Shown: piece by piece, positions 20,658 to 38,174 of the stretch
Position numbering within the stretch: position 1 is the first letter of the stretch
Layout of the letters: every line of letters starts with the position of its first letter
UHGV virus genome: UHGV-1545242
DNA: 38,625 nt
Reading direction: 5' to 3' (one strand)
Source of the DNA: a virus
Program-made: the position numbers and the translations under genes
Notes under the pieces: generated by a model
The model's database searches: none
Seen by the model: only the letters and a program-made list of their open reading frames with translations
Told to the model about the DNA's origin: nothing

Positions 20658-20981
20658 ATGGAACTCGTAAACCTCAAAACCGGCACTGACAGCTACCAGG
20701 ATGAGAGCGGAGAAACCAGAACTCGCGATGAATACCCGTGGGGGCTGTGCATCACGCTGAATAACGACACATTGAATAAGCTGAAGGCGCAACCTAAGGG
20801 CGTCGGAACGGAAGTGATGATAACTGCAAAGGCTGTTATTCGAGGCCTGTCTGCCAGAGAAACTGACGATGGCGTTAATCGCAGCGCCGATCTGCAGATC
20901 ACTGATATGGCGATCGCTCCTGTTTCCGGGGATGTAGAAAAATCAGCGGCTGAAACTCTGTACGGTAACGGAGGTGAGTGA
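20658..20981 (+). CDS. Hypothetical virion protein
   Basis: AGGAG SD then ATG at 20658. Confidence 0.5.
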   Translation: MELVNLKTGTDSYQDESGETRTRDEYPWGLCITLNNDTLNKLKAQPKGVGTEVMITAKAVIRGLSARETDDGVNRSADLQITDMAIAPVSGDVEKSAAETLYGNGGE

Positions 20982-21586
20982 TGGCCTCTGTAGTAGAGAT
21001 CTGTAATCGTGCGCTGTCCAATATTGGCAACAGCCGCAGCATTAACAGCCTGACGGAAGCCAGCAAGGAAGCGGGGGAATGTTCGCTGCACTTTGAGGCC
21101 TGCCGTGATACTGTGCTTTCTGATTTTGACTGGAACTTTGCTACCAAACGCGTGGCGCTTGCAGATACGAGCAATCCACCGCCTGACTGGGAATATGCGT
21201 ACCAGTACCCGTCAGATTGTCTGCGCATTACTGAAATTATGCTTCCTGGTGTACGCAATCCAACAGCAGCAATGCGCGTTCAGTACGAAGTTGGTGCAGA
21301 CACCAACGGAACAGGAAAGTTGATCTACACAGACCAGCCTCAGGCATGGCTCAAGTATGTCTCTCGCGTTACAGATGTGAACATGTTTGATGCCATTTTT
21401 ATGGAGGCGTTGGCCTGGCGTCTTGCGGCAGCTATTAACATGGCGCTGACTGGGAATGCAGACCTCGGTACGTTTGCCCTCAATATGTACAATCGCGTGA
21501 TTCTTAGTGCTGGCTCGCATAGCCAGAATGAATCACAGGAACCACAGCCACCGGTTGACGAGTTTACCATTGCGAGGTTGTCCTGA
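20978..21586 (+). CDS. Virion protein, possible head-tail adaptor
   Basis: 202-aa ORF coupled to the following large tail gene. Confidence 0.5.
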   Translation: MMASVVEICNRALSNIGNSRSINSLTEASKEAGECSLHFEACRDTVLSDFDWNFATKRVALADTSNPPPDWEYAYQYPSDCLRITEIMLPGVRNPTAAMRVQYEVGADTNGTGKLIYTDQPQAWLKYVSRVTDVNMFDAIFMEALAWRLAAAINMALTGNADLGTFALNMYNRVILSAGSHSQNESQEPQPPVDEFTIARLS

Positions 21587-24057
21587 TGGCTATCAGTTGG
21601 ATCCAGCCCAGCTTTGCTGGTGGTGAGATTGGACCGTCGTTGTACGGACGTATCGACATGGCGAAGTACCAGGTGGCATTGCGCAAGTGCGATAACTTTA
21701 TCGTGCGGCAGTATGGCGGCGTTGAGAATCGACCTGGTACGCGTTTTGTCGGTGCCGCCAAATATCCAAATCGGAAATGCCGCCTGATCCCGTTCCAGTT
21801 CTCGACGGTTCAGACTTATGCTCTGGAGTTCGGACACCAGTACATGCGCGTTATCAAAGATGGTGCGTTGGTGCTGAACAGCAGCAATGTTATTTATGAA
21901 ATTTCCACGCCATATACTGAAGCCGATCTGTTCCGAATTAAATTCACGCAAAGCGCAGACGTGCTTACGCTGGTTCATCCGGCATACCCGCCGAAAGAGT
22001 TGCGCCGCTATGCGCATGACAACTGGCAACTGGTTGATGTGGTAACGAAGAACGGGCCATTTGAAGATATCAATATTGACGAGTCAGTGACGGTTTATGC
22101 CAGCGCCAGCACCGGGACAATTACGCTAACGGCAAGCGCCTCTATTTTTGGCGCGGAGCAGGTAGGCAAATTGTTCTATCTGGAACAGCCTGCAGTGGAT
22201 TCTGTGCCGGTATGGGAAACCAGTAAGAGTACGTCGATTGGCGATATTCGCCGAGCAGACAGTAACTACTATCGCGCCGTTAAAGCAGGCAAAACAGGTA
22301 CTTTGCGCCCTTCGCATACAGAAGGCACATCATGGGATGGCTGGGGCGGATCCGGTGATGATGATACTGGCATTGAGTGGGAATATCTGCACAGTGGTTT
22401 TGGCATTGCCCGTATCACTGCTGCAAATGGAACTACTGCAACTGCCGAGGTGATTTCCTATATCCCTTCGCAGGTAGTTGGCGAGGATAATGCCAGCTAT
22501 AAATGGGCTAAATATGCCTGGAACAGTGTTAATGGTTATCCTGGCACTGTTGTTTATTATCAACAACGTCTTTACTTCGCCGCATCGACTGCGTTTCCTC
22601 AGACTATCTGGGCCAGCCGTACCGGGGATTATAAGGATTTTGGCAAAAGCAATCCTACGCAGGATGACGACAGAATTATCTACACCTATGCCGGGCGTCA
22701 GGTTAATGAGATCCGTCACCTGATTGATGTTGGTTCGCTGGTGGCGCTGACTTCCGGAGGTGAGTACGTCATCACTGGCGACCAGAACAAAGTGCTTACC
22801 CCATCATCATTTGCATTCAGCTCTCAGGGATCAAATGGCTCGAGCAATGTCCCACCAATTGCCGTGGCGAATATTGCTCTGTTCGTCCAGGAGAAAGGCA
22901 GTGTTGTCCGTGATCTGGCCTACTCATTCGATGTTGACGGCTATCAGGGGAACGACCTGACCATCCTTGCCAATCATCTTTTTCAGAAGCACAGTATTGT
23001 TGACTGGTGCTTCTCTATTGTCCCTTACTCCAGCGCCTTCTGCATTCGTGATGACGGTAAATTACTGGTGATGACCTATTTGCGTGATCAGCAGGTTTTT
23101 GCATGGGCACCACAATCCAGTACCGGAAAATATGAAAGCACATGCAGTATCAGCGAAGGAAATGAAGATGCGGTGTATTTCGTCGTTAACCGAACCGTTA
23201 ACGGGCAAACAGTGAGATACATCGAGCGACTGTCCAGCCGTTTATTTACCAGCGATGAAGATGCTTTCTTTGTTGATTCTGGCCTTAGCTATGATGGAAG
23301 AAATACGTCTGACAGAACGATGACCATCACTGGTGGTTCTGGTGAATGGGATTACCGCGCGGAATATACAATCAGTATTTCTGGTGGTGCGTACTTCACC
23401 AGTAGTGATGTCGGTGCGCAACTACAATTCCCTTATACCGGAACTGATCCTGATACTGGCGATGAAGTGTCAAAAGAATTACGTTGCGACATTATTTCTG
23501 TAACCAGCAATACCGCTGTAGTGGTTCGTCCTAACAGGAACGTCCCATCATCCCTCAGGAATGTGGCCACCACGAACTGGCAGATGGCGCGCCGGACATT
23601 TGGAGGCCTGTCTCATCTTGAAGGCCAGACCGTAAACATTCTCTCTGATGCGAACGTGGAACCACAGAAAGTTGTTTCCGGAGGTGCCGTCACGCTGGAA
23701 TCTCCGGGGGCTGTAGTGCACATCGGCCTGCCAATAACTGCTGAATTCGAAACACTGGATATCAACATTAGCGGACAGGAAACGCTGCTGGACAAAAAAC
23801 AGGTGATCCCGTCCGTTACTCTGGTTGTGAATGCCAGTCGCGGCATCTGGGCGACTACGCCCGGCGGTAAATGGTACGAATATCCACAGCGTGAATTCGA
23901 GTTCTACGATGATCCTGTTGATGATGCTACCGGAAAAGTAGAAGTGAAACTGGACAGTAACTGGGGCAAAAACGGACGTGTAAAAATCCGTCAGCTTGAC
24001 CCGTTGCCGCTGTCTGTTCTTGCCGTTATTCCTCGCCTTACTGTTGGGGGATTCTGA
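21586..24057 (+). CDS. Large tail protein, probable tail tube/nozzle (T7 gp12-like position)
   Basis: 823 aa, beta-rich composition, located after adaptor-like gene. Confidence 0.55.
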   Translation: MAISWIQPSFAGGEIGPSLYGRIDMAKYQVALRKCDNFIVRQYGGVENRPGTRFVGAAKYPNRKCRLIPFQFSTVQTYALEFGHQYMRVIKDGALVLNSSNVIYEISTPYTEADLFRIKFTQSADVLTLVHPAYPPKELRRYAHDNWQLVDVVTKNGPFEDINIDESVTVYASASTGTITLTASASIFGAEQVGKLFYLEQPAVDSVPVWETSKSTSIGDIRRADSNYYRAVKAGKTGTLRPSHTEGTSWDGWGGSGDDDTGIEWEYLHSGFGIARITAANGTTATAEVISYIPSQVVGEDNASYKWAKYAWNSVNGYPGTVVYYQQRLYFAASTAFPQTIWASRTGDYKDFGKSNPTQDDDRIIYTYAGRQVNEIRHLIDVGSLVALTSGGEYVITGDQNKVLTPSSFAFSSQGSNGSSNVPPIAVANIALFVQEKGSVVRDLAYSFDVDGYQGNDLTILANHLFQKHSIVDWCFSIVPYSSAFCIRDDGKLLVMTYLRDQQVFAWAPQSSTGKYESTCSISEGNEDAVYFVVNRTVNGQTVRYIERLSSRLFTSDEDAFFVDSGLSYDGRNTSDRTMTITGGSGEWDYRAEYTISISGGAYFTSSDVGAQLQFPYTGTDPDTGDEVSKELRCDIISVTSNTAVVVRPNRNVPSSLRNVATTNWQMARRTFGGLSHLEGQTVNILSDANVEPQKVVSGGAVTLESPGAVVHIGLPITAEFETLDINISGQETLLDKKQVIPSVTLVVNASRGIWATTPGGKWYEYPQREFEFYDDPVDDATGKVEVKLDSNWGKNGRVKIRQLDPLPLSVLAVIPRLTVGGF

Positions 24058-24521
24058 TGATCGATGTTCAAATTATTCCCGCTACCGAAGAGCATCTTCA
24101 GATGATTTTGCCGGATGTTCGTCAGGCTGATATTGACGAACTGTATGCGGTATCGCTGATGACTACCGAAGATGCGCTGCGTGTTGGTCTTCGCACTGCG
24201 ACTATGGCCTGGTCAGGATTTGCGAACGGAGAACTGGTAACCATGTTTGGCGTATCTCCGGCGTCAATGATCGGTGGCAATGGTACGCCCTGGCTGGTAG
24301 GAACCAGCCGTATTGAAAAATATCAGAAGACATTTCTTCGCCACTGCCGCCCTGTATTGCAGCAGATGCTGGCAGTTTATCCGCGCCTGGAAAACTACGT
24401 CGACGAGCGAAACCATGTTGCCAAAGCATGGCTGCACTGGCTTGGATTCAGGCTTGAAGAAGCCGCGCCTTATGGTGCTCTTGGTCTTAATTTCCACAGA
24501 TTTCACATGGAGAGAAAATAA
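24057..24521 (+). CDS. Virion-associated protein
   Basis: 154-aa ORF translationally coupled in tail/ejection module. Confidence 0.5.
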   Translation: MIDVQIIPATEEHLQMILPDVRQADIDELYAVSLMTTEDALRVGLRTATMAWSGFANGELVTMFGVSPASMIGGNGTPWLVGTSRIEKYQKTFLRHCRPVLQQMLAVYPRLENYVDERNHVAKAWLHWLGFRLEEAAPYGALGLNFHRFHMERK

Positions 24522-25060
24522 TGTGTAACCCAGCCATCGCTTTGGTTGCCGTCACAGTGGCATCCACAGCCGCGTCAATGTACAGCCAGAGCAAGCAGGC
24601 AAAATACCAGTCAGCCATAGCTGATCGGAATGCTGAAATTGCTGAAGCTCAGGCACAGGATTCAATCAATCGTGGGAATATTGAAGCGGATCAGCGTCGT
24701 CGTGAAATGCGTCAACGCTCAGGCACTGCGGCGGCCACTATGGGGGCTACCGGTGCGGAATTAAGTAGCGGAACAGCTCTTGACGTTTTTGCGGATAATG
24801 CTCAGTTCGGCACTCTTGATGCGTTAACGACAGTGAATAATGCTCAGCGTGAGGCATATGGGTATCAGGTTCAGGGAATGAATGCTCAGGCACAGGGGGC
24901 TGCTGCTCAGTCGGCTGCTAAATCATCGATGACCAGCACTTTGTTAACGGCACCACTAAAAGCATACGGTGCATACCAGATGGGCGGCGGAACGTGGAGC
25001 CCGTTCTCTCAGAAGGCTGCGCCGATTTCTGCTGCTGTTGGCACTCCAACCGGTCGATAA
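24521..25060 (+). CDS. Internal virion/ejection protein (small, N-terminal hydrophobic segment)
   Basis: N-terminal PAIALVAVTVASTAASM hydrophobic stretch; Ala/Gln-rich. Confidence 0.5.
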   Translation: MCNPAIALVAVTVASTAASMYSQSKQAKYQSAIADRNAEIAEAQAQDSINRGNIEADQRRREMRQRSGTAAATMGATGAELSSGTALDVFADNAQFGTLDALTTVNNAQREAYGYQVQGMNAQAQGAAAQSAAKSSMTSTLLTAPLKAYGAYQMGGGTWSPFSQKAAPISAAVGTPTGR

Positions 25061-25072
25061 GGGGATAATAAG

Positions 25073-27586
25073 ATGCCAGTTGTACCAACAACATCGGGCC
25101 GTCAGGTTCAGAGCAGAGGGATTTCGACGCAGGGATTCTCATCGTTTCAGACACCAAATGTCGGTGATGTACTTGGCGATGTTGCAGAGCAATATGCAGG
25201 TATTATTGCGCAGGCAAAACAGCGTGCGAATGTTGCTATGGCTCAGGATGCTTCTCTTAGCTTAAGCCAGATAAGCAGCGATCTGCTGAATAACCCTGAA
25301 ACAGGTTTGTTTAACCTGAAAGGGAAAAATGCTATTGGAAAGGGTCAGGAGTATACGCAGCAGTTTGATGCTCAGGTCGAACAACTGGCTATGTCGCTGC
25401 CGGATGAACAGGCTCGTAATGCTTTCATGCAGCAGGCGCAGCAGCAGCGCATTCAGTTCACTACGCAGGCCGGGCGGCACGAGATAGGGCAAATAAATGC
25501 CTACGAAGAAGGCCAGTTTCAGGCTACGCTGCTGAACAATGGTAAAAATGCCGCAGCATTGTATGGCGACAACGCCGCATACGTATTGGCTAATAAGCAA
25601 ACTTTCCAGCAAATTGAGGATTACGGCATTGCACATGGCTGGAGTGACGAGCAAATCCAGGCCAAGAAAATCGAGTTTAAAGAAGCAACAGCAAAAGCAA
25701 CTGCTCAAAATGCTATTGGAGCAAACTATCTTCAGGTAAGACAGCAAAATGGCGAGTTAAGCGATACTGCTGCTGGATCTCGCCGTGCTGTAGCAGATAG
25801 TGGCTCTTCCGATCGTACCCGCGGTATACGCAACAATAACCCCGGCAATCTTGAATACAGCAAAACTAATCCGTGGGTTGGGCAGACTGGTGATGATGGT
25901 CGCTTTGCCAAATTCGAAACCCCTGAACACGGTATTCGTGCATTAGGGCGGAACCTGATGTCGTATCAGCGGCAGGGTATTGATACCGTCAGCGAGATAA
26001 TTAATCGCTGGGCACCGCCTACTGATAAAAATGACACTATGTCGTATATCAAAGCAGTGTGCGAACAACTTGGCGTTTCTGCTGATGAGCCTCTCGATGC
26101 ATCAAATCCTGATACCCTGAAGGCGCTTTGTGCAGCCATTATCCATCATGAAAACGGTAGCCAGCCATACAGTGATCAGCAGTTAACTGCAGGTATTAGT
26201 GCTGCGCTGGGGCTTTCTCAGCTACCGACAAAAAATAAACGTTATACCGGTGTAGCTTGGTTCGATGCTTTAAGTGAATCAGATCAGGCCAGCGTGTTGC
26301 GACAGACTGATGCACTAGCCAGACAACAGCAGGCTGAATATAAAACGATGCTCGACAGCCGGGTTCGCGATGCGACGGCTGCGTATATGCGTGGCATTGA
26401 ATTTCCTAACCCACCTGGTGAGGATGATTTTATTGCAGCTTATGGAGTCAGAGAAGGAAACCTGCGATATACCGAGTTTAAGAATACGCAGATCGCTGGA
26501 CAGTATATAGGCTCTTTCCGCAACATGCCGACAAGCAGCATTACAGCATATGTTGAGCAATTACGCCCGGATACTGGTGATACAGGGGAGGGGTATGCGG
26601 CACGCGCAGCTCTTTATGACAACGTTGTTTCGGCTGCAAATCAGGTGATAAAGCAGCGGCAGTCGGATCCTGTGCAGTTCTCTCTTTCCTCCGGACAGGC
26701 AAAGCCTATCGACATGAGCAATAAGGATAACTTTGGACAGAGCGTTGCCTTGCGTGCCGCTCAGGTCAGTGACCTTGCTAAGTCATATGGCACTCCACTG
26801 ACGTTCTTTTCCAAAGACGAGGCCAATCAGATCGGTGTTTTCTTTCGTGATGCTCCAGTTTCCCAACAGGCAGCATATCTCGATACCATCAGGCAGAGCA
26901 CTGGTGGTGGGCAGGTGTATATGTCAGCACTACAGCAGATCAGTGCCAACGCTCCATCTGCTGCCGTTGCCGGGATACTGATGGATAAGCCTGGTGGTAT
27001 TTTGGCAGAAAAAAACTGGTTTAATCCGGATGTTTCCGTGTCTCCTGAAACTGCTGCGCAGACAATTCTTGCTGGCGCGGCGGCTCGTAAAGGTACTGAT
27101 GATGCGAAAGGTATTCCGATGCCTAAAGATGCTGATCTTCGCCTTGAGTTTTCTGACATGGTGAAGGATGCATTTGCTGGTGACGCTCAGGGGGCATCAA
27201 TGGCATACGAGATCGCAAAGGATTATTACGCTGGTGTGATGGCGAAAAAAGGCGTGGTATCAGGCGAAATTGACAATGATGTCTGGAAACAGGCTGTTAA
27301 CGTAGCTACAGGTGGCGTGCATGACTATAACGGAATGGGGAATGTCCTTTTGCCGTGGGGAATGTCTGCAGAGCAATTCGATAAGCAGGTTAATCAGGCT
27401 TGGAATGAACAAGTTGTCGGCTCCGGGATAAAAACACCGCCTGGTCAGTATGGTTTGCAAAGTTACGGCGATAGTCAGTACCTGGTGAAACTTGGTACTG
27501 GTTATCTGCTGAAAGATGATGGTTCTCCCGTTGTTCTTAATCTGACACAGAAACGTCAGAGATTCTCCGGAGATATTCCGCAATGA
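25073..27586 (+). CDS. Internal virion/ejection protein with conserved central domain
   Basis: 837 aa; central block GIRNNNPGNLEYS...WVGQ...RFAKFETPEHGIRALGRNLMSYQRQGIDTVSEIINRWAP. Confidence 0.6.
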   Translation: MPVVPTTSGRQVQSRGISTQGFSSFQTPNVGDVLGDVAEQYAGIIAQAKQRANVAMAQDASLSLSQISSDLLNNPETGLFNLKGKNAIGKGQEYTQQFDAQVEQLAMSLPDEQARNAFMQQAQQQRIQFTTQAGRHEIGQINAYEEGQFQATLLNNGKNAAALYGDNAAYVLANKQTFQQIEDYGIAHGWSDEQIQAKKIEFKEATAKATAQNAIGANYLQVRQQNGELSDTAAGSRRAVADSGSSDRTRGIRNNNPGNLEYSKTNPWVGQTGDDGRFAKFETPEHGIRALGRNLMSYQRQGIDTVSEIINRWAPPTDKNDTMSYIKAVCEQLGVSADEPLDASNPDTLKALCAAIIHHENGSQPYSDQQLTAGISAALGLSQLPTKNKRYTGVAWFDALSESDQASVLRQTDALARQQQAEYKTMLDSRVRDATAAYMRGIEFPNPPGEDDFIAAYGVREGNLRYTEFKNTQIAGQYIGSFRNMPTSSITAYVEQLRPDTGDTGEGYAARAALYDNVVSAANQVIKQRQSDPVQFSLSSGQAKPIDMSNKDNFGQSVALRAAQVSDLAKSYGTPLTFFSKDEANQIGVFFRDAPVSQQAAYLDTIRQSTGGGQVYMSALQQISANAPSAAVAGILMDKPGGILAEKNWFNPDVSVSPETAAQTILAGAAARKGTDDAKGIPMPKDADLRLEFSDMVKDAFAGDAQGASMAYEIAKDYYAGVMAKKGVVSGEIDNDVWKQAVNVATGGVHDYNGMGNVLLPWGMSAEQFDKQVNQAWNEQVVGSGIKTPPGQYGLQSYGDSQYLVKLGTGYLLKDDGSPVVLNLTQKRQRFSGDIPQ

Positions 27587-29385
27587 GTTACTTTGGCCTT
27601 AATCCAGTAAACCAGAATCAGCAGCTTGACGAAGCAGCATCAAATCCAGCTGGCTTTAACAGCGATGTTGGTTTTTTCGACAATGCTGTAGGAGTGGCAT
27701 TGTCTGGTTTGTACTCCGGGCTGGTGGCAAAGCCAGATCAGTTGCTATGGGCAGGGATGGATAAAATCGTATCCCCGATTGCTCAGTTTGTTAACGAAAA
27801 CACCTCGCTCAATGACACTTCAGTTTCATACATTGCTGAGCAGAGAAAACTAGCAGAGCAGCAGGTTAAGCGGCTGACGCCTGATGCCGCGACAACCGGA
27901 ACCGCCGGGCAGGTTCTTTATGGGTTGTTCGATATGGGCGGGCAGGCTGTTGTCGGTACAACGCTCGGTGGTCCTGTCGGAGGTGCAGCGGCGGTAACTT
28001 CGCTACAGGGTTTTTCTGAGTTTGAACGGCTGATAGCACAGGGTGTTGATTTCAGGACGGCGCAGGAAGCGGGATTAGTGCAGGGCATTACTGCTGGTGC
28101 CGGAACACTGATCCCTATGAGCCTCGGGTTACGTGCTGGTGGTGCGCTGGCGGAAGGTGTGGCGGCTCAGCTTGCGCGGACGGGTGAGAGTTCAGTGCGA
28201 CGCGCCGCAGCAACAGCAGTACGTGCAACGCCAGATATTGCCTATGCCGCAGGTACAAATATTGCGTTCGGTATGGCACAGCGTGGGCTTACTGCAAAAA
28301 CGCTTCGTGATGGTGGCTATAGCGAAATGGCTAACCAGTATGATGTGTTGGATCGACAGGCAATTGCTATTGATGCTGTTCTTGGGGTGGCGTTTGGTGG
28401 TGTCGGCAGATTTATTAACTCTCGCGGCGAGTCTACAAGCGCACCAAATTTTTCACCAGTTGATATCGATGCTGCACTGGCGGCGAATGCCGCTCATCAT
28501 GCTGAAATTGATATTGCTCCTGGCGTGCCGATCAACGTGCTTTCGCGTAATTCTCACATTCAGGCTCTGCGAAAAGCCATGTCTGATGTTAGCCAGGGGA
28601 GACCTGTAGACGTTGCCAGCATTGTTGAGTCTGCATCTTTCAGTGAAATCCCTGGGCACAAGAGTCTGCTTTCTCAGGCAGTTAATGAGGCTCTGTCATC
28701 TGTAGATGATGGAAAAACGGCGCGCGCTATAGAAAATCGGTTGCTTGAAGAACAGGCCGCGCAGCTTTTGTCGCGTGGCGATAGACAGGTTTACCAGTCT
28801 GAAATCGCTAATAGCCAACGAATTATCGACAATCTCACTGAACAGCGCGCACAAATTCTTGCAGAAGAGCCAACTGGTAGCGGTAAAGCTTTGTCTCGTG
28901 CTCGATCAGATAAACAGGCCAGAATTCGCGATATTGACCAACGAATCCGGCAGGCACAAGAACGCCTGGAATTTTCCCGTAACGCGTTGGCGCCGCACGA
29001 GCCTGGAGGTCAGTTTTTTGAAGCTCGAGCAGAACTGGCACGACGACAGCAGGCAGAAAGTGAACTTAATGCTCAGGCTGTTTCATTCTATAAAACAGCA
29101 GAGGTCAGGACGCCAGACGAAGTAGCTCCTTTTGAGCCCGGTAAGATATTGCAACAGACAGAACAAAAAATGATGGCAGATCCGGCAGGAGATATTGATC
29201 TGCGTATAGCTGAAGACTCGCTGCTTGAATCTCCGGACATGATAATCACCGTGCTGGATGATGATGGTAATCCACAATCGCGCAGTGCGCGTGAAGTACT
29301 GGATGAAGCGAACAGGGAAAGTGAGCAGGCAATACAGGATTCCAGCCTGTTTGATGTTGCTGTGGCGTGTTTCTTGAGAGGTTAA
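27583..29385 (+). CDS. Internal virion/ejection protein
   Basis: 600-aa ORF, Gly/Ala-rich N-half, coiled-coil C-half. Confidence 0.55.
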   Translation: MSYFGLNPVNQNQQLDEAASNPAGFNSDVGFFDNAVGVALSGLYSGLVAKPDQLLWAGMDKIVSPIAQFVNENTSLNDTSVSYIAEQRKLAEQQVKRLTPDAATTGTAGQVLYGLFDMGGQAVVGTTLGGPVGGAAAVTSLQGFSEFERLIAQGVDFRTAQEAGLVQGITAGAGTLIPMSLGLRAGGALAEGVAAQLARTGESSVRRAAATAVRATPDIAYAAGTNIAFGMAQRGLTAKTLRDGGYSEMANQYDVLDRQAIAIDAVLGVAFGGVGRFINSRGESTSAPNFSPVDIDAALAANAAHHAEIDIAPGVPINVLSRNSHIQALRKAMSDVSQGRPVDVASIVESASFSEIPGHKSLLSQAVNEALSSVDDGKTARAIENRLLEEQAAQLLSRGDRQVYQSEIANSQRIIDNLTEQRAQILAEEPTGSGKALSRARSDKQARIRDIDQRIRQAQERLEFSRNALAPHEPGGQFFEARAELARRQQAESELNAQAVSFYKTAEVRTPDEVAPFEPGKILQQTEQKMMADPAGDIDLRIAEDSLLESPDMIITVLDDDGNPQSRSAREVLDEANRESEQAIQDSSLFDVAVACFLRG

Positions 29386-29390
29386 ATTAA

Positions 29391-31865
29391 ATGAGACAGG
29401 AATGTATACAAGCGGTCCAGCAGGCGGCGCAGCGCACGTTAACGGCGCGAGAAATACAGAACATTGAAGACCGCATTTATCGAAATATGCGCTCCATTGC
29501 TCGTGATGACCCGATGTCGTGGCGACAACTTTCCGAATCAGAACGGTTGTATCGTGCAGCACAATTGGCATCTGAAGAATTACAGCGAGAAGCGACATTA
29601 AAGAAACGTCGTGTGGCTCTCACTATAGCCGCACGTCAGAGATTGGATAAATTTATCAATAGCTATCAAGGGGCTGATGGGAAACTTGGCGCTCTTAACC
29701 GTACTATTGCTTTTAATGCAGACGGTAAATCGAATTTCCTCTCTGTTGAATCCAGAACAAAAGCCACTCGTGATTATGCATTGAGTCAATTGCAGGAGGC
29801 ATTTGAAGCAGTTGATCCTCGCTTTTTTGGCCTGTTTGAAGATGAAGCGGGCGTGCGTGATCTGGTATATGAAATGCGAGGGCAAAATACTGGCAATGCT
29901 AAAGCAAGAAAAGGTGCTAAGGCGTGGAGAGAAGTGACAGAGCTACTGCGCCGCCGGTTTAATGATGCTGGTGGTGACATTGGCTATCTCGAAAACTGGG
30001 GGATCCCTCAACATCATTCTATGGAAAAGGTTGGGGCGGTATCAAAGGATAAGTGGGTTAGCGATATTATAGGTAAGCTGGATCGCAAATATTATACTCG
30101 AGCCGATGGACAACTGATGAACGATGCCGAGTTGTCTGCATTTCTTGGAGAATCTTATAACACAATCGCCACTGGTGGGCTGAATAAGCTTACTGATACC
30201 GGCATGCGAATTTCCGGCGCACGTGCTAATCGTGGTAATGCATCACGACAGATACATTTCAAAGATGCAGATTCCTATCTGCAATATCAGCAACTTTATG
30301 GCGATCGCTCTCTATGGGAAGTCATGGTCGGTCACCTGGAAGGTATCAGTAAAGATATTGCACTGGTGGAAACATATGGCCCAAACCCCGATCATGTTTT
30401 CCGCTCCCTTCTTGATCAGGTGAAGGCAGAAACGGCAACAGCTAACCCGAGTAAAACCGGTAGCGTCGAGCGCCTGGCGAACAACACAGAGAATCTGTAC
30501 AACTTTATTTCAGGAAAGACACAGCCTGTAGCGAATCCGCACATCGCGCGCTGGTCTGACAATATCCGCAATTGGCTGGTTGCCAGCCGACTCGGATCCG
30601 CGTTGCTGTCATCGTTCTCTGATCTTGGAACCATGTATCTGTCTGCGAAGGTGACCAACCTTCCAATGAACCAGTTATTCCGCAACCAGCTTGAAGCTAT
30701 GGACCCAACGAACCGGACTGAGCTTGCGCGGGCGCGCCGCGCTGGTCTGGCGATGGAATCTCTACTTGGCAGCGTTAACCGCTGGGCGATGGATAATATG
30801 GGGCCGTCAGTGTCTCGTTGGGCGGCAACGGCGGTAATGCGTGCCAGTGGGCTTACAGCATGGTCAGATGCGCACAAGCGCGCCTATGGCGTAACCATGA
30901 TGGGAAGCCTGGGAGAAGTAGTGTCACGGACACCAGACCTTCGTAGCCTCGATGACTCTGATTTTCGTATCCTGAAAAGCAAAGGGATTACTGACACAGA
31001 CTGGAGCGTATGGAAGCTGGCGCAACAGGAGGACTGGGGGAACGGTAATAATACGATGCTGACACCGGAAAGCATTATGCGTATCCCTGATTCAGCAGTT
31101 AAACATCTTGGTGAGCCTGAACGCGTGAAATTTGAGGCAATGCGTAAACTGCTCGGTGCCGTAACTGAAGAAGTTGATATGGCTGTTATTACACCGGGAG
31201 CACGTGAGCAACTGATAACCGGTTCTGGTATTCAGCGTGGAACATGGAAAGGTGAATTAACGAGAAGTGTTTTCCTGTTTAAATCGTTCCCTATCTCGGT
31301 TGTTATGCGTCACTGGTCACGCGCTATGGGTATGCCGTCTGCTGGTGGGCGTGCGGCATATATTGCGACGTTTATTGCCAGTACGACCATTCTTGGCGCT
31401 TTGTCGCAGCAACTTAACGACCTTGCGTCTGGTCGTAATCCTCGAGAGATGACAGGAGAAGATGCCGCAAAATTCTGGCTTGGTGCTCTACTGAAAGGTG
31501 GTGGTCTTGGCCTTTACGGTGACTTTTTATTGTCAGATCACACTAGGTACGGAAGCGGCGCGCTGGCGTCGATGCTTGGCCCGGTAGCTGGTCTGGTTGA
31601 TGACGTAGTGAAGATTGCTCAGGGCATACCGTTAAATGCTGTGGAAGGGAAGAGTGAGCAGACTGGTGGTGATCTGGTGAAGCTGGGGAAAGGTTTGATG
31701 CCAGGTGCGAATCTCTGGTACTTGAAGGCGGCTCTCGATCACATGATCTTTAACCAGATGCAGGAGTATTTTTCACCTGGCTATTTGCGTAAAATGGAGC
31801 AACGTTCGAAGAAAGAGTTTAACCAGACATACTGGTGGCGACCACAGGATGTCACTCCGCAATAA
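29391..31865 (+). CDS. Internal virion/ejection protein (largest)
   Basis: 824-aa ORF, last of three consecutive large genes before tailspike. Confidence 0.55.
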   Translation: MRQECIQAVQQAAQRTLTAREIQNIEDRIYRNMRSIARDDPMSWRQLSESERLYRAAQLASEELQREATLKKRRVALTIAARQRLDKFINSYQGADGKLGALNRTIAFNADGKSNFLSVESRTKATRDYALSQLQEAFEAVDPRFFGLFEDEAGVRDLVYEMRGQNTGNAKARKGAKAWREVTELLRRRFNDAGGDIGYLENWGIPQHHSMEKVGAVSKDKWVSDIIGKLDRKYYTRADGQLMNDAELSAFLGESYNTIATGGLNKLTDTGMRISGARANRGNASRQIHFKDADSYLQYQQLYGDRSLWEVMVGHLEGISKDIALVETYGPNPDHVFRSLLDQVKAETATANPSKTGSVERLANNTENLYNFISGKTQPVANPHIARWSDNIRNWLVASRLGSALLSSFSDLGTMYLSAKVTNLPMNQLFRNQLEAMDPTNRTELARARRAGLAMESLLGSVNRWAMDNMGPSVSRWAATAVMRASGLTAWSDAHKRAYGVTMMGSLGEVVSRTPDLRSLDDSDFRILKSKGITDTDWSVWKLAQQEDWGNGNNTMLTPESIMRIPDSAVKHLGEPERVKFEAMRKLLGAVTEEVDMAVITPGAREQLITGSGIQRGTWKGELTRSVFLFKSFPISVVMRHWSRAMGMPSAGGRAAYIATFIASTTILGALSQQLNDLASGRNPREMTGEDAAKFWLGALLKGGGLGLYGDFLLSDHTRYGSGALASMLGPVAGLVDDVVKIAQGIPLNAVEGKSEQTGGDLVKLGKGLMPGANLWYLKAALDHMIFNQMQEYFSPGYLRKMEQRSKKEFNQTYWWRPQDVTPQ

Positions 31866-32950: not shown

Positions 32951-35900
32951 ATGACGGTCTCAACCGAAGTTGACCACAACGAATACACCGGTAACGGCGT
33001 TACGACATCGTTTCCGTATACTTTTCGAATTTTCAGAAAATCAGACCTGGTTGTTCAGGTGTCTGACCTGAACGGAAACGTAACAGAATTGGTTCTGGAT
33101 ACCGGTTATACGGTAACTGGGGCGGGCACTTATAGTGGCGGTTCTGTGGTTCTTCCGTCTCCGCTTGCTACTGGATGGCGAATTACGATAGATCGTGTGC
33201 TTGATGTAGTGCAGGAGACAGACCTTCGCAATCAGGGAAAATTTTTCCCCGAAGTGCATGAAGATGCCTTTGACTACCTGACGATGCTGATCCAGCAATG
33301 TTTTGGGTGGTTCAGACGTGCATTGATGAAACCATCTTTGCTTGCAAAATATTACGATGCAAAGCAAAACAAAATTTCTAACCTTGCAGATCCATCATTT
33401 GAGCAGGACGCTGTAAATAATCGCTCAATGCGTAATTATGTCGATGCTGCAATCGCCGGGGTTGTTGGTGGTTTTGGTTGGTTTATTCAGTATGGTTCTG
33501 GGGCTGTGTACCGAACGTTCCAGGATAAAATGCGTGATGCTATTAGCCCCAAAGATTTTGGAGCTGTTGGTGATGGTATAAATGACGATTCCACTGCAAT
33601 AAGCGCGTGCCTTGAAGCCTCATCTCCAGGTTATAAAATTGACGGATTAGGGCTTACTTTTAAAGTATCAACTCTTCCGGATGTCAGTCGATTTAAAAAT
33701 GCTCGTTTTTTATTTGAGAGAATACCGGGCCAGCCTCTTTTTTATGCTTCTGAAGATTTTATCCAGGGAGAGTTATTTAAAATTACAGATACACCGTGGT
33801 ACAACGCCTGGACGCAGGATAAAACGTTTGTATATGACAATGTCATCTATGCGCCTTTTATGGCTGGAGACCGCCATGGTGTAAATAACCTCCATGTTGC
33901 ATGGGTTCGCTCAGGAGATGACGGGAAGACCTGGACAACGCCGGAATGGCTTACAGATTTACATGAAAACTATCCCACAGTTAACTATCACTGCATGAGT
34001 ATGGGGGTTGTCAGAAATCGCCTTTTTGCTGTAATTGAGACGCGGACCGTGAGAGGAAATAAACTGCAGGTTGCAGAGTTGTGGGATCGCCCAATGAGTC
34101 GCAGCCTTCGCGTTTATGGTGGTATAACGAAAGCAGCAAATCAGCAAGTCGCTTATATTCGCATTACTGATCACGGATTATTTGCTGGTGATTTTGTCAA
34201 CTTCTCAAACTCTGGTGTTACAGGTGTTACCGGGAATATGACGGTGACTACTGTTATTGATAAAAATACCTTTACAGTTACGACGCAAAATACCCAGGAT
34301 GTGGATCAGAATAACGAGGGTAGATACTGGAGTTTTGGCACATCATTTCACTCGTCACCATGGAGAAAAACCAGTCTTGGAACTATTCCTTCTTTTGTTG
34401 ACGGAAGCACTCCTGTTACTGAGATTCACAGTTTTGCGACGATTAGCGATAACAGTTTTGCTGTTGGCTACCATAATGGTGATATTGGTCCACGCGAGCT
34501 TGGGATACTCTATTTCTCTGATGCTTTCGGTTCTCCTGGTAGCTTTGTTCGCAGACGCATACCTGTAGAATATGAGGCGAATGCATCTGAGCCATGTGTA
34601 AAATATTATGATGGCATTCTGTATCTGACGACCAGGGGGACATTAAGTACTCAACCCGGTAGTTCATTGCACAGAAGCTCTGATTTAGGTACATCATGGA
34701 ATTCTCTTCGCTTCCCAAATAATGTTCATCACTCAAACCTTCCTTTTGCCAAAGTTGGCGATGAGCTGATTATTTTTGGCAGTGAGCGCGCATTTGGTGA
34801 GTGGGAAGGAGGAGAACCTGATAACCGTTATGCAGGAAATTATCCAAGAACATTTATGACCAGAGTTAACGTCAATGAGTGGAGTCTGGATAATGTAGAG
34901 TGGGTTAATGTTACTGATCAGATTTATCAGGGCGGAATAGTTAACTCTGCGGTTGGTGTTGGTTCAGTTTGTATCAAAGACAACTGGCTGTACTACATTT
35001 TCGGTGGGGAAGACTTTCTAAACCCATGGAGCATAGGGGATAACAACAGAAAATATCCTTATGTTCACGATGGTCACCCGGCTGATTTGTATTGTTTCAG
35101 GGTGAAAATTAAACAGGAAGAATTTGTTTCAAGGGATTTTGTCTACGGAGCCACTCCTAACAGAACGCTTCCTACTTTTATGTCGACGTCAGGCGTGAGG
35201 ACGGTTCCTGTACCCGTTGATTTCACAGATGATGTTGCCGTCCAGTCACTGACTGTCCATGCAGGTACATCAGGACAAGTTCGCGCGGAAGTCAAACTTG
35301 AGGGTAATTACGCCATTATTGCGAAGAAAGTACCGTCTGATGATGTTACCGCTCAGAGATTAATCGTTAGCGGCGGTGAAACAACGTCTTCAGCAGATGG
35401 TGCAATGATAACGTTGCATGGTTCCGGAAGCAGTACTCCACGTCGCGCGGTATATAACGCACTCGAACATCTTTTTGAGAACGGAGATGTTAAACCTTAT
35501 CTTGATAATGTAAATGCTCTTGGTGGTCCGGGAAACAGGTTCTCGACAGTTTATCTTGGCTCCAATCCTGTGGTTACCAGTGACGGAACATTAAAGACAG
35601 AGCCGGTCTCTCCTGACGAAGCATTGCTGGATGCCTGGGGTGACGTCAGGTATATCGCTTATAAATGGCTGAACGCTGTCGCTATAAAGGGGGAAGAAGG
35701 GGCGAGGATACATCATGGTGTAATCGCGCAGCAACTTCGTGATGTTCTTATTTCTCACGGACTCATGGAAGAAGAAAGCACAACATGCCGCTATGCCTTT
35801 CTTTGCTATGACGATTATCCCGCAGTATATGATGACGTCATTACTGGCCAAAGGGAAATGCCGCTGACTGATAATGACGGGAGCATCATTGTTGATGAGG

Positions 35901-36070
35901 ATGATAATCCAGTGATGGTAATAGAAGACATCATTGAGCGCGTTGAAATAACGCCAGCAGGATCTAGATGGGGGGTCAGACCTGATCTCTTATTCTATAT
36001 CGAGGCAGCATGGCAGCGCAGAGAAATGGATAAGATAAAAGAGCGGGTTCAGTCTCTGGAAGAACGTTAA
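32951..36070 (+). CDS. Tailspike/depolymerase with C-terminal intramolecular chaperone (S74-type) domain
   Basis: 1039 aa; conserved N-terminal virion-attachment region; central DFGAVGDGINDDSTAI beta-helix start motif; C-terminal TSDGTLK...YIAYKW...RIHHGVIAQQL pattern. Confidence 0.85.
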   Translation: MTVSTEVDHNEYTGNGVTTSFPYTFRIFRKSDLVVQVSDLNGNVTELVLDTGYTVTGAGTYSGGSVVLPSPLATGWRITIDRVLDVVQETDLRNQGKFFPEVHEDAFDYLTMLIQQCFGWFRRALMKPSLLAKYYDAKQNKISNLADPSFEQDAVNNRSMRNYVDAAIAGVVGGFGWFIQYGSGAVYRTFQDKMRDAISPKDFGAVGDGINDDSTAISACLEASSPGYKIDGLGLTFKVSTLPDVSRFKNARFLFERIPGQPLFYASEDFIQGELFKITDTPWYNAWTQDKTFVYDNVIYAPFMAGDRHGVNNLHVAWVRSGDDGKTWTTPEWLTDLHENYPTVNYHCMSMGVVRNRLFAVIETRTVRGNKLQVAELWDRPMSRSLRVYGGITKAANQQVAYIRITDHGLFAGDFVNFSNSGVTGVTGNMTVTTVIDKNTFTVTTQNTQDVDQNNEGRYWSFGTSFHSSPWRKTSLGTIPSFVDGSTPVTEIHSFATISDNSFAVGYHNGDIGPRELGILYFSDAFGSPGSFVRRRIPVEYEANASEPCVKYYDGILYLTTRGTLSTQPGSSLHRSSDLGTSWNSLRFPNNVHHSNLPFAKVGDELIIFGSERAFGEWEGGEPDNRYAGNYPRTFMTRVNVNEWSLDNVEWVNVTDQIYQGGIVNSAVGVGSVCIKDNWLYYIFGGEDFLNPWSIGDNNRKYPYVHDGHPADLYCFRVKIKQEEFVSRDFVYGATPNRTLPTFMSTSGVRTVPVPVDFTDDVAVQSLTVHAGTSGQVRAEVKLEGNYAIIAKKVPSDDVTAQRLIVSGGETTSSADGAMITLHGSGSSTPRRAVYNALEHLFENGDVKPYLDNVNALGGPGNRFSTVYLGSNPVVTSDGTLKTEPVSPDEALLDAWGDVRYIAYKWLNAVAIKGEEGARIHHGVIAQQLRDVLISHGLMEEESTTCRYAFLCYDDYPAVYDDVITGQREMPLTDNDGSIIVDEDDNPVMVIEDIIERVEITPAGSRWGVRPDLLFYIEAAWQRREMDKIKERVQSLEER

Positions 36071-36376: not shown

Positions 36377-36781
36377 ATGTCTGCTCAAGTAACAAGTGAG
36401 CAATTAAATCAGTTGCTTAGTTTTGGTTCTCTTGCTGCAGTTATTGCAGGTGTCCCTCCGGAGGTTGCTTTAGGGGCTTTGGCTGGGGCGGTAATTTTTG
36501 TTACCTCTGCAGTAGAGTACCCCATCCGTCGCCGGGTGCTCCTGTCGATGCTCAGCTTTCTTTGCGGCCTTCTCTTTTACAAACCAGCAGCATCAATTCT
36601 TATCGGCATAGCCAGCCTGATCCCTACCATCACGCAGGACTCTTTTGAAAAAGGGATTGTTTTCTCTGCAGGCGCATTCGTGTCAGCAATTGTCGCTGTG
36701 CGTATTGGTATATGGCTCTATCACCGTTCCGATAATCCACGCGAGTTAATTCCGGGGAGAAAAGACGATGGTAACGCATGA
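36377..36781 (+). CDS. Holin (multi-TMD)
   Basis: Hydrophobic segments separated by short charged loops, charged C-terminus; SD AACAGGAGAAAGT then ATG; precedes endolysin. Confidence 0.7.
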   Translation: MSAQVTSEQLNQLLSFGSLAAVIAGVPPEVALGALAGAVIFVTSAVEYPIRRRVLLSMLSFLCGLLFYKPAASILIGIASLIPTITQDSFEKGIVFSAGAFVSAIVAVRIGIWLYHRSDNPRELIPGRKDDGNA

Positions 36782-37076
36782 GTTTTTTTTGCTTATCACT
36801 AATGCAGTTATTTGCACTGGCATAGCAATTCGCGTTGTCACATTCCGGCGTAACGGCTCTCAACATCGAAGGTGGGGAGGATGGCTTGCTTATTTCCTGA
36901 TTGTTGCTGCGGCCAGTATTCCTGTTCGAGTCGCCTATGCAATCTGGTTACGTACGCCAATGGCTGTGGATTTATCTGAGGTCATTATCAACGCTGTCAT
37001 GCTGGCTGCGGTTATTAAAACGCGCGGTAACGTCGTTCAAATTTTTAAAGTATCGAGGTCTAAACATGGAGATTAA
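36768..37076 (+). CDS. Second small membrane protein of lysis cassette (holin/antiholin-like)
   Basis: Three hydrophobic stretches; overlaps holin stop and endolysin start. Confidence 0.5.
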
Positions 37077-37695
37077 ACAATTCCAGCGAGCTGCTGGTAT
37101 CAGCGAGGCACTGGCCGCACGCTGGTTCTCGCATATAACTTCTGCGATGAAAGAGTTTGGTATCAGCAAAGCAGAAGATCAGGCAATGTTTATTGCTCAA
37201 GTCGGGCATGAGTCTGGGGGCTTCACCAGGTTGCAGGAGAATTTCAACTACAGTGTCAGCGGACTGGCTAACTTCGTTCGGGCTGGGCGTCTCACTCAGG
37301 GGCAGGCTAATGCACTGGGGCGCCGTGCTGGTGAACCACCATTGCCACTTGAGCGCCAGCGCGCGATCGCAAATCTGGTATACAGCAAACGCATGGGGAA
37401 CAATGCCCCTGGTGATGGCTGGAATTACCGAGGGCGCGGACTTATCCAGATTACCGGTTTGAATAACTATCGTGATTGCGGAAACGGTCTGAAGGTTGAC
37501 CTGCTGGAGAGCCCTGAACTGCTGGCGCAGGACGGATATGCGGCTCGTAGCGCGGCGTGGTTCTTCGCCAGCAAAGGATGCATGAAGTATACCGGCGATA
37601 TTGCACGTGTAACTCTGATTATCAATGGTGGCCGGAACGGCATCGACGACCGGCGAGCGCGGTACATCACTGCCAGTAAGGTGCTGGCGGTATGA
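37066..37695 (+). CDS. Endolysin, glycoside hydrolase family 19 (chitinase-like lysozyme)
   Basis: GH19-type motifs [12 protein letters not shown] and [12 protein letters not shown]; start at MEIKQF (ORF track begins further upstream). Confidence 0.85.
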
Positions 37696-38174
37696 TCTGG
37701 GCATTCGTAAAAGCATACTGGAAACAGTTTCTTATCGTGGCAGTGCTTGCTGTTCTGGTCATATCAGGAGTGGTTGCCTGGAATATACACGGCAGTCGCC
37801 AGTACGATGCCGGGTATGCTCAGGCGGAAGAAGACCGCAAAGCCGAAGAAGACAAAGTTCGTCAGTACTACGAACAGGAGAAAGTGACCAATGAACGTGA
37901 AGCTCAGCAGAGGATCGACCAGGCGCGCAATGATGCTCTTGATGCTGCCGCTAGCGCTGGCCGGTTGCAGCAACAACTCTTTGCCATCCGTGAGCAGCTC
38001 AGGCAGTATAACGCCATTGTCGGCGCTGGGTCGTCAGCCGCAGACACCGGAGTTTTGCTTGCCGACGTGCTCAGCAAATCTCTCGAGAGAAACAGACAAC
38101 TGGCAGAGTATGCTGACCGGGCAGCCGAAGCCGGAAGAGTCTGCGAAAAACAGTACGACACTTTGACCAGATAG
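37692..38174 (+). CDS. Rz: i-spanin (Rz-like)
   Basis: N-terminal TMD ([18 protein letters not shown]) then charged coiled-coil periplasmic domain; follows endolysin. Confidence 0.75.
37891..38166 (+). CDS. Rz1: o-spanin (Rz1-like) embedded in the Rz gene in an alternate frame
   Basis: Lipoprotein signal [13 protein letters not shown] and Pro/Ser-rich mature region, wholly inside Rz coordinates. Confidence 0.6.
   Translation: MNVKLSRGSTRRAMMLLMLPLALAGCSNNSLPSVSSSGSITPLSALGRQPQTPEFCLPTCSANLSRETDNWQSMLTGQPKPEESAKNSTTL

Follow-up and report, generated by a model that had tools for sequence, protein, structure and literature searches.

What is the function of the conserved block in the middle of a large putative ejection protein? 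The question is raised by an open reading frame (ORF) of 837 amino acids (aa) at positions 25073..27586 (+) of the UHGV virus genome UHGV-1545242, a stretch of 38,625 nucleotides (nt) that was analysed at its full length and is referred to here as the window. A preliminary description had pointed to a central block of the encoded protein, GIRNNNPGNLEYS...INRWAP, as a compact conserved enzymatic or binding domain of unassigned family within an otherwise low-complexity internal virion protein, and had considered a cell-wall-remodelling activity. The ORF is present in the ORF listing exactly as described; it starts with ATG, is preceded by a GGGG Shine-Dalgarno-like motif, and its stop codon overlaps the ATG at 27583 that opens the next ORF.

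A search of the PDB sequences with the 837-aa protein (phmmer) gave two matches, both within residues ~248-403. One is 7q47_A 'Endolysin', the Enc34 catalytic domain, whose chain residues 6-140 align with residues 248-368 of the query (E=2e-17). The other, residues 3-151 of the 1295-aa chain 9vvp_L 'Gp29', is the closest solved relative of the domain (E=1.2e-38). The entry 7q47 is the catalytic domain of ORF39 of the Hafnia phage Enc34 and represents the CDD family PHA02564 (PMC8943055). In PHROGs, the region ~243-390 matches families annotated as endolysin, as tape measure protein and as 'tail injection transglycosylase'. Sequence and fold matches support the assignment of about 130 residues, ~249-378 (25817..26206, +), to an Enc34-type (PHA02564, 'structural protein P5'-type) peptidoglycan hydrolase domain.

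Muralytic activity has been shown in this family for Enc34 ORF39deltaC and M4LysdeltaTMD (PMC8943055, PMC7143992). The Enc34 domain acts on E. coli, P. aeruginosa and H. alvei whose outer membrane has been permeabilised (PMC8943055), and the M4Lys domain, listed as 'provisional virion protein domain, PHA02564', degrades peptidoglycan to products that indicate a glycosidase and possibly an endopeptidase (PMC7143992). For Enc34 a catalytic signature Trp79/Tyr95/Glu131 has been proposed, and its authors predict a beta-N-acetylglucosaminidase (PMC8943055). By analogy with M4Lys and Enc34, the bond cleaved by the window domain is probably that of an N-acetylglucosaminidase.

The signature columns were examined in an alignment of 123 sequences that included the 7q47 and 9vvp segments. 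The motifs RGIRNNNPGN, GIRA, RWAP, N.T..Y and HENG are invariant or nearly so among the 123 family members, and all three signature residues are retained in the window protein. Trp313 (codon 26009..26011, +), the putative substrate-positioning aromatic residue, aligns with Trp79 of 7q47 in a column of 117 W and 6 Y. Tyr325 (26045..26047, +) corresponds to Tyr95 and is a tyrosine in 123/123 sequences. Glu360 (26150..26152, +), within the HENG motif, corresponds to the proposed catalytic Glu131 (PMC8943055) and is a glutamate in all 120 ungapped sequences. A profile of the domain was in addition searched against 1.84 billion representatives of 50%-identity clusters, of which 19,325 matched at E<=1e-3, 13,805 of them also at E<=1e-10; the conservation of the domain is far above chance expectation. 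The conserved block described earlier is therefore real, as the near-invariant motifs and the 19,325 representatives show, but its limits were drawn too narrowly: at residues 251-315 (25823..26017) it is only the N-terminal half of the domain, which includes W313 and leaves out Y325 and E360.

The fold of the domain was predicted with AlphaFold2 from residues 235-400 aligned with 53 diverse homologs. The model is confident (predicted local distance difference test, pLDDT, 88.7; predicted template modelling score, pTM, 0.81), and in a Foldseek search against the PDB its sole match at E<=0.001 was 7q47 (E=1.7e-10, template modelling score 0.70-0.73). The modelled domain adopts the helical fold of 7q47, which is all-helical and resembles the alpha-lobe of lysozyme, with a circular permutation in comparison with GH73 and GH23 (PMC8943055). 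An identification of 7q47 as the Pae87/PF11860 'Muramidase' lysin was dropped; Pae87 is the entry pair 7q4s/7q4t and belongs to a different family (PMC8972805).

The family libraries gave a different picture. Neither Pfam-A (2025 copy) nor NCBIfam (release 20) contains a family for the full 837-aa protein or for 54 members of its family. The Pfam search proposed in the preliminary description thus returned no match, an outcome that reflects a gap in the Pfam and NCBIfam libraries and does not refute the presence of an enzyme domain. Sub-threshold matches to PF01832 Glucosaminidase (GH73) were seen in 8/54 relatives (best E=0.015); none reached the Pfam gathering threshold, and the query itself had no PF01832 match. 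This signal is compatible with the very distant relationship to GH73 that has been proposed (PMC8943055).

We considered first whether the domain could instead be a lytic transglycosylase of the GH23/SLT type, which would cleave N-acetylmuramic acid-N-acetylglucosamine bonds and leave 1,6-anhydro ends as T7 gp16 does. The GenBank note on epsilon15 gp15 reads 'putative lytic transglycosylase; HHpred 4anr SltB' (AY150271.2), many database records call the same domain 'peptidoglycan lytic exotransglycosylase', and the Enc34 authors argue for a distant common ancestry with GH23 and GH73 (PMC8943055). Profile and fold searches of the window protein returned neither a family profile nor a fold of GH23/SLT (the T7 gp16-N type), so that the assignment in the GenBank note finds no support in either, and we regard a GH23/SLT enzyme as unlikely.

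The next question was in which kind of protein, and among which genes, the domain resides. At the nucleotide level, the relatives of the 837-aa ORF are phages of the genus Uetakevirus: Escherichia phage Phi05_1387 B is 99.5% identical, HEMP4, ZX5, phiv142-3 and phiV10 are 92-98% identical, and Salmonella phage epsilon15 is 73% identical over the 5' 60% of the ORF. The protein shares 56% aa identity over its full length with epsilon15 gp15 and is matched over its full length by phrog_992 ('head protein'). Epsilon15 gp15 and the phiV10 'structural/head protein' are its orthologs, and its source is a Uetakevirus-like phage or prophage. With 24057..24521 in a gp13-like and 24521..25060 in a gp14-like position upstream, the ORF (25073..27586, +) takes the position in the tail/internal-virion operon that corresponds to T7 gp15.

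The gene order of the window reproduces T7 gp11-gp12-gp13-gp14-gp15-gp16. The portal gene (PF12236) lies upstream of the tail genes, and capsid proteins (PF20911, Bbp16, Gp10-like) are encoded between it and the tail tubular genes, that is, the tail tubular A-like (20978..21586) and tail tubular B-like (21586..24057) proteins. These are followed by the ortholog of epsilon15 gp13, a 154-aa internal virion protein in the T7 gp13-like slot (24057..24521, +; phrog_308, E=9e-63, and synteny), and by a 179-aa internal virion protein of the T7 gp14 family (24521..25060, +), which matches PF24072 T7_gp14 with 32.8 bits (cut-off 27; E=8e-8) and phrog_418 'internal virion protein' (E=4e-68). The 837-aa ORF stands directly after this gp14-family gene. 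Downstream, in the epsilon15 gp16 slot, lies a gene for a 600-aa protein whose start overlaps the stop of the 837-aa ORF (27583..29385, +; phrog_1145, of unknown function, and synteny) and which is probably another ejection or virion protein; an 824-aa virion structural protein occupies the gp17 slot (29391..31865, +; phrog_684 'virion structural protein', and synteny). The 1039-aa tailspike (32951..36070, +) is an endosialidase (PF12217, PF12219, PF12195, PF12218) with a Peptidase_S74 chaperone domain, from which the K1 polysialic-acid capsule, rather than O-antigen, is predicted as the target.

By synteny and the PF24072 match, the gp14-like gene corresponds to epsilon15 gp14 and the large genes after it to gp15-gp17. 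Table 1 of PMC8954989 lists other ejection proteins for epsilon15, namely gp11 (229 aa), gp12 (499 aa) and gp13 (708 aa). The spans in AY150271.2 do not agree with this table; they give ~200 aa for gp11, ~825 aa for gp12 and ~155 aa for gp13. Outside the enzyme module, Pfam and NCBIfam gave no homology of the protein to T7 gp15 or gp16; gp15-like proteins are usually paired by size and synteny only (PMC8954989).

Because gp13- and gp14-like genes precede the ORF and the lysis cassette of the window is separate, we consider it quite likely that the 837-aa protein of this epsilon15/phiV10-like podophage carries a virion-borne, entry-associated peptidoglycan glycosidase domain. The basis of this reading is family membership by sequence, the fold match, the conservation of the signature residues, the synteny and the separate lysis cassette. 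The wall-remodelling role suspected in the preliminary description gains support in this way from the sequence: from the match to 7q47 (E=2e-17), the intact signature residues and the gene order. A secondary citation assigns epsilon15 gp15 to the injection device, and a 'structural lysozyme' is listed in the same module of the related phages AF and Ab31.

Alternatively, the domain could act when infection ends, contributing to lysis or serving as a second endolysin, and not at entry. The best characterised relatives, Enc34 ORF39 and M4Lys, are endolysins, 68 of the best 150 cluster representatives (about 45%) are short stand-alone proteins (<=300 aa), and PHROGs names related families 'endolysin'. 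Here, however, the domain is embedded in an 837-aa protein within the tail/internal-virion operon, and this protein has no predicted membrane segment (no 19-residue hydropathy window reaches 1.6). Moreover, the window has a complete cassette of its own, consisting of two holins, Phage_holin_8 (36377..36781, +) and Phage_holin_3_7 (36768..37076, +), a GH19 chitinase-like endolysin (within the ORF 36901..37695, +) and a DUF2514 Rz-like protein (37692..38174, +). The same domain also occurs in virion proteins, namely a Kayfunavirus gp16-like protein, PM2 P5 and NO16 GP11. A late role is therefore very improbable. That the domain is kept mainly as a murein-binding or structural module of the ejection conduit, with catalysis irrelevant or lost, is equally hard to credit: the transglycosylase activity of T7 gp16 is needed only in certain conditions and the activity of the 837-aa protein is a predicted one, but W313, Y325 and E360 are intact and essentially invariant throughout the family, the pattern expected from selection on catalysis.

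If the domain is an entry-associated hydrolase, the following sequence of events can be envisaged. The 837-aa protein would be packaged in the virion, and at infection it would leave through the portal and tail alongside the gp14-like protein and the two large proteins encoded downstream. A flexible linker would join the hydrolase domain to the helical flanking modules, and the substrate groove of the lysozyme-alpha-lobe-like helical fold would carry Trp313, Tyr325 and the proposed catalytic Glu360. The domain would then make local cuts in the glycan strands and thereby let the trans-periplasmic DNA conduit through the murein layer.

Several points weigh against an entry hydrolase. Guichard et al. 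(2013) are reported to have placed epsilon15 gp15 in the tail tube and not in the internal or capsid core. Pfam and NCBIfam reveal no similarity between the 837-aa protein and T7 gp15 itself, and the full-length structural model, with a pLDDT of 56, permits no statement on how the domain is presented. The activity and the virion presence of this very protein are predictions. The bond specificity of the family is unsettled, the M4Lys data suggesting both glycosidase and endopeptidase products (PMC7143992). Finally, the equivalent activity of T7 is required only under some conditions (PMC8954989), and by analogy the domain may be dispensable.

The remainder of the protein was inspected for features that accompany the enzyme domain. 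The N-terminal module, residues 1-240 (25073..25792, +), is A/Q-rich and, by composition and AlphaFold2, predicted to form long alpha-helices (31-226) followed by a linker; phrog_19141 matches residues 1-249 and phrog_36437 residues 1-225. The C-terminal two thirds, residues 379-837 (26207..27583, +), are predicted to be helical to about residue 530, and phrog_35810 matches the last ~200 residues (637-837). Conservation relative to epsilon15 gp15 is high over the first ~540 residues, and the C-terminal ~300 are much more diverged. Outside the enzyme domain there was no Pfam, NCBIfam or PDB sequence match. The full-length AlphaFold2 model (pLDDT 56, pTM 0.33) was built from a shallow alignment and was used for secondary-structure tendencies only: residues 40-215 have a pLDDT of 70-87, residues 217-251 and 604-837 are below 50, and helices are also seen at 400-530, whereas the C-terminus is unreliable. 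In this model the linker at about 217-251, just before the enzyme domain, is probably flexible. The flanks are rich in A, Q and G and mostly alpha-helical by prediction, and only 0.1% of the 20-residue windows in an entropy scan fell below 2.6 bits; the earlier characterisation of the flanks as low-complexity does not hold.

Many E. coli prophage variants of the protein are 935 aa long (P0126, for example). Relative to the window protein, their N-terminal module is 87% and the rest 97% identical, and they contain an additional segment of ~98 residues (GNINLFNRPSVKNEDGTISTVRTISIG...; residues ~250-347 of P0126). The insertion point corresponds to residue ~249 of the window protein (nt ~25817), at the very junction that precedes the enzyme domain. 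For the insert, neither a significant match in Pfam nor one among the PDB sequences was obtained. One could speculate that this junction is a cassette site for module swapping and that the domain has a dual glycosidase/endopeptidase or accessory-regulated activity, the dual chemistry being suggested by the hints from M4Lys digestion products. Enc34-type entry enzymes would then form a distinct class and not a plain lysozyme analogue, a proposal to which we give little credence.

The best 150 cluster representatives also show how the domain is distributed among proteins. Sixty-four of them are at least 500 aa long, and in 45 of these 64 the start of the domain lies within residues 200-400, which is also the case in the 837-aa protein, whose N-terminal module is common to only 13 of the 64. 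Most long members lack the flanking modules of the 837-aa protein; the enzyme domain is therefore a shuffled module. Three metagenomic proteins, P0241 (762 aa), P0242 (1259 aa) and P0351 (1337 aa), contain two to four copies of the domain. P0241 has four Enc34-type copies with the exact HENG motif only once, and some of its copies may, judging from the sequence, be degenerate.

Among 50,697 GenBank phage records, 816 carry the domain. The gene is carried by 411 of 5,426 complete E. coli genomes, nearly always in the chromosome, and is thus a common prophage gene of E. coli; in the records listed it is a 'hypothetical protein'. This RefSeq label is due to the lack of a Pfam-A or NCBIfam model for the domain (window 25775..26272). 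In phage records, the names given to the domain or to this gene include 'internal virion protein with endolysin domain', 'DNA ejectosome component' and 'peptidoglycan lytic exotransglycosylase', as well as 'endolysin', 'beta-N-acetylglucosaminidase', 'capsid and scaffold', 'head protein' and 'lytic transglycosylase'. The label 'structural protein P5' on some matches traces to P5 of the corticovirus PM2.

Murein hydrolase modules in the ejection proteins of podoviruses are textbook knowledge, and the feature described here is already known both in kind and in the Uetakevirus lineage. The domain family has a crystal structure and the annotation of the epsilon15 ortholog already names a wall-degrading enzyme, so that little is at stake scientifically. 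The practical value lies in annotation, namely in the precise family (Enc34-type/PHA02564, not SLT) and in the recognition of a very large family that has no Pfam or NCBIfam model. A better label for the gp15-like proteins of Uetakevirus would be 'virion protein with Enc34-type (PHA02564) peptidoglycan hydrolase domain'. Taken alone, the domain of 130 residues is also conceivable as an enzybiotic module, a use already considered for Enc34.

Finally, the window protein can be compared with known systems. The nearest is epsilon15 gp15 (AAO06078.1), which is 84% identical in the enzyme domain and has an identical gene neighbourhood, but which is annotated as a putative lytic transglycosylase, whereas the searches made here assign the domain to the Enc34 type. 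Enc34 ORF39 and M4Lys of phage BSPM4 are lysis-cassette proteins of ~26 kDa with an N-terminal domain and a C-terminal two-helix membrane anchor; in the window, by contrast, the domain is internal to an 837-aa protein which has no predicted membrane segment and is encoded among structural genes.

Gp29, of which PDB entry 9vvp holds four chains, resembles the window protein in carrying the same enzyme module in a large ejection-type protein. A literature search found no paper mentioning this entry, and Gp29 was identified by tblastn: the aligned segment shares 98-99% identity with 'internal virion protein D', the gp16 equivalent of the T7-like Kayfunavirus phages, and the Kayfunavirus relative is annotated as an ejectosome component. 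The two proteins differ in that the domain of Gp29 lies at the extreme N-terminus of a gp16-like protein (3-151 of 1295), whereas in the window it begins at residue ~249 of a protein in the gp15 slot, and the flanks are unrelated.

The same logic of opening the murein from the virion is found in the N-terminal SLT domain of T7 gp16, in the lysozyme domains carried by gp15-like proteins in K1E, K1-5 and SP6, and in phiKMV gp36. These modules have GH23 SLT or other lysozyme folds and belong to different families; no sequence or fold match of the window domain to the enzyme families of T7 gp16, K1E, K1-5, SP6 or phiKMV was found. That a murein-cleaving module can switch between gp15-like and gp16-like proteins is known from K1E and K1-5 (PMC8954989). 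P5 of the corticovirus PM2, a protein of the virion, is predicted to resemble Enc34 and to have the same triad (PMC9502842), and the Enc34-like NO16 GP11 has been detected in virions (bioRxiv 10.1101/2025.11.28.690173). PM2 P5, its Vinavirales homologs and NO16 GP11 thus share with the window protein an Enc34-like domain with the conserved triad, carried in the virion. The P5-type proteins, however, are small proteins of tailless membrane-containing phages, whereas in the window the domain is a module of a large podovirus ejection protein.

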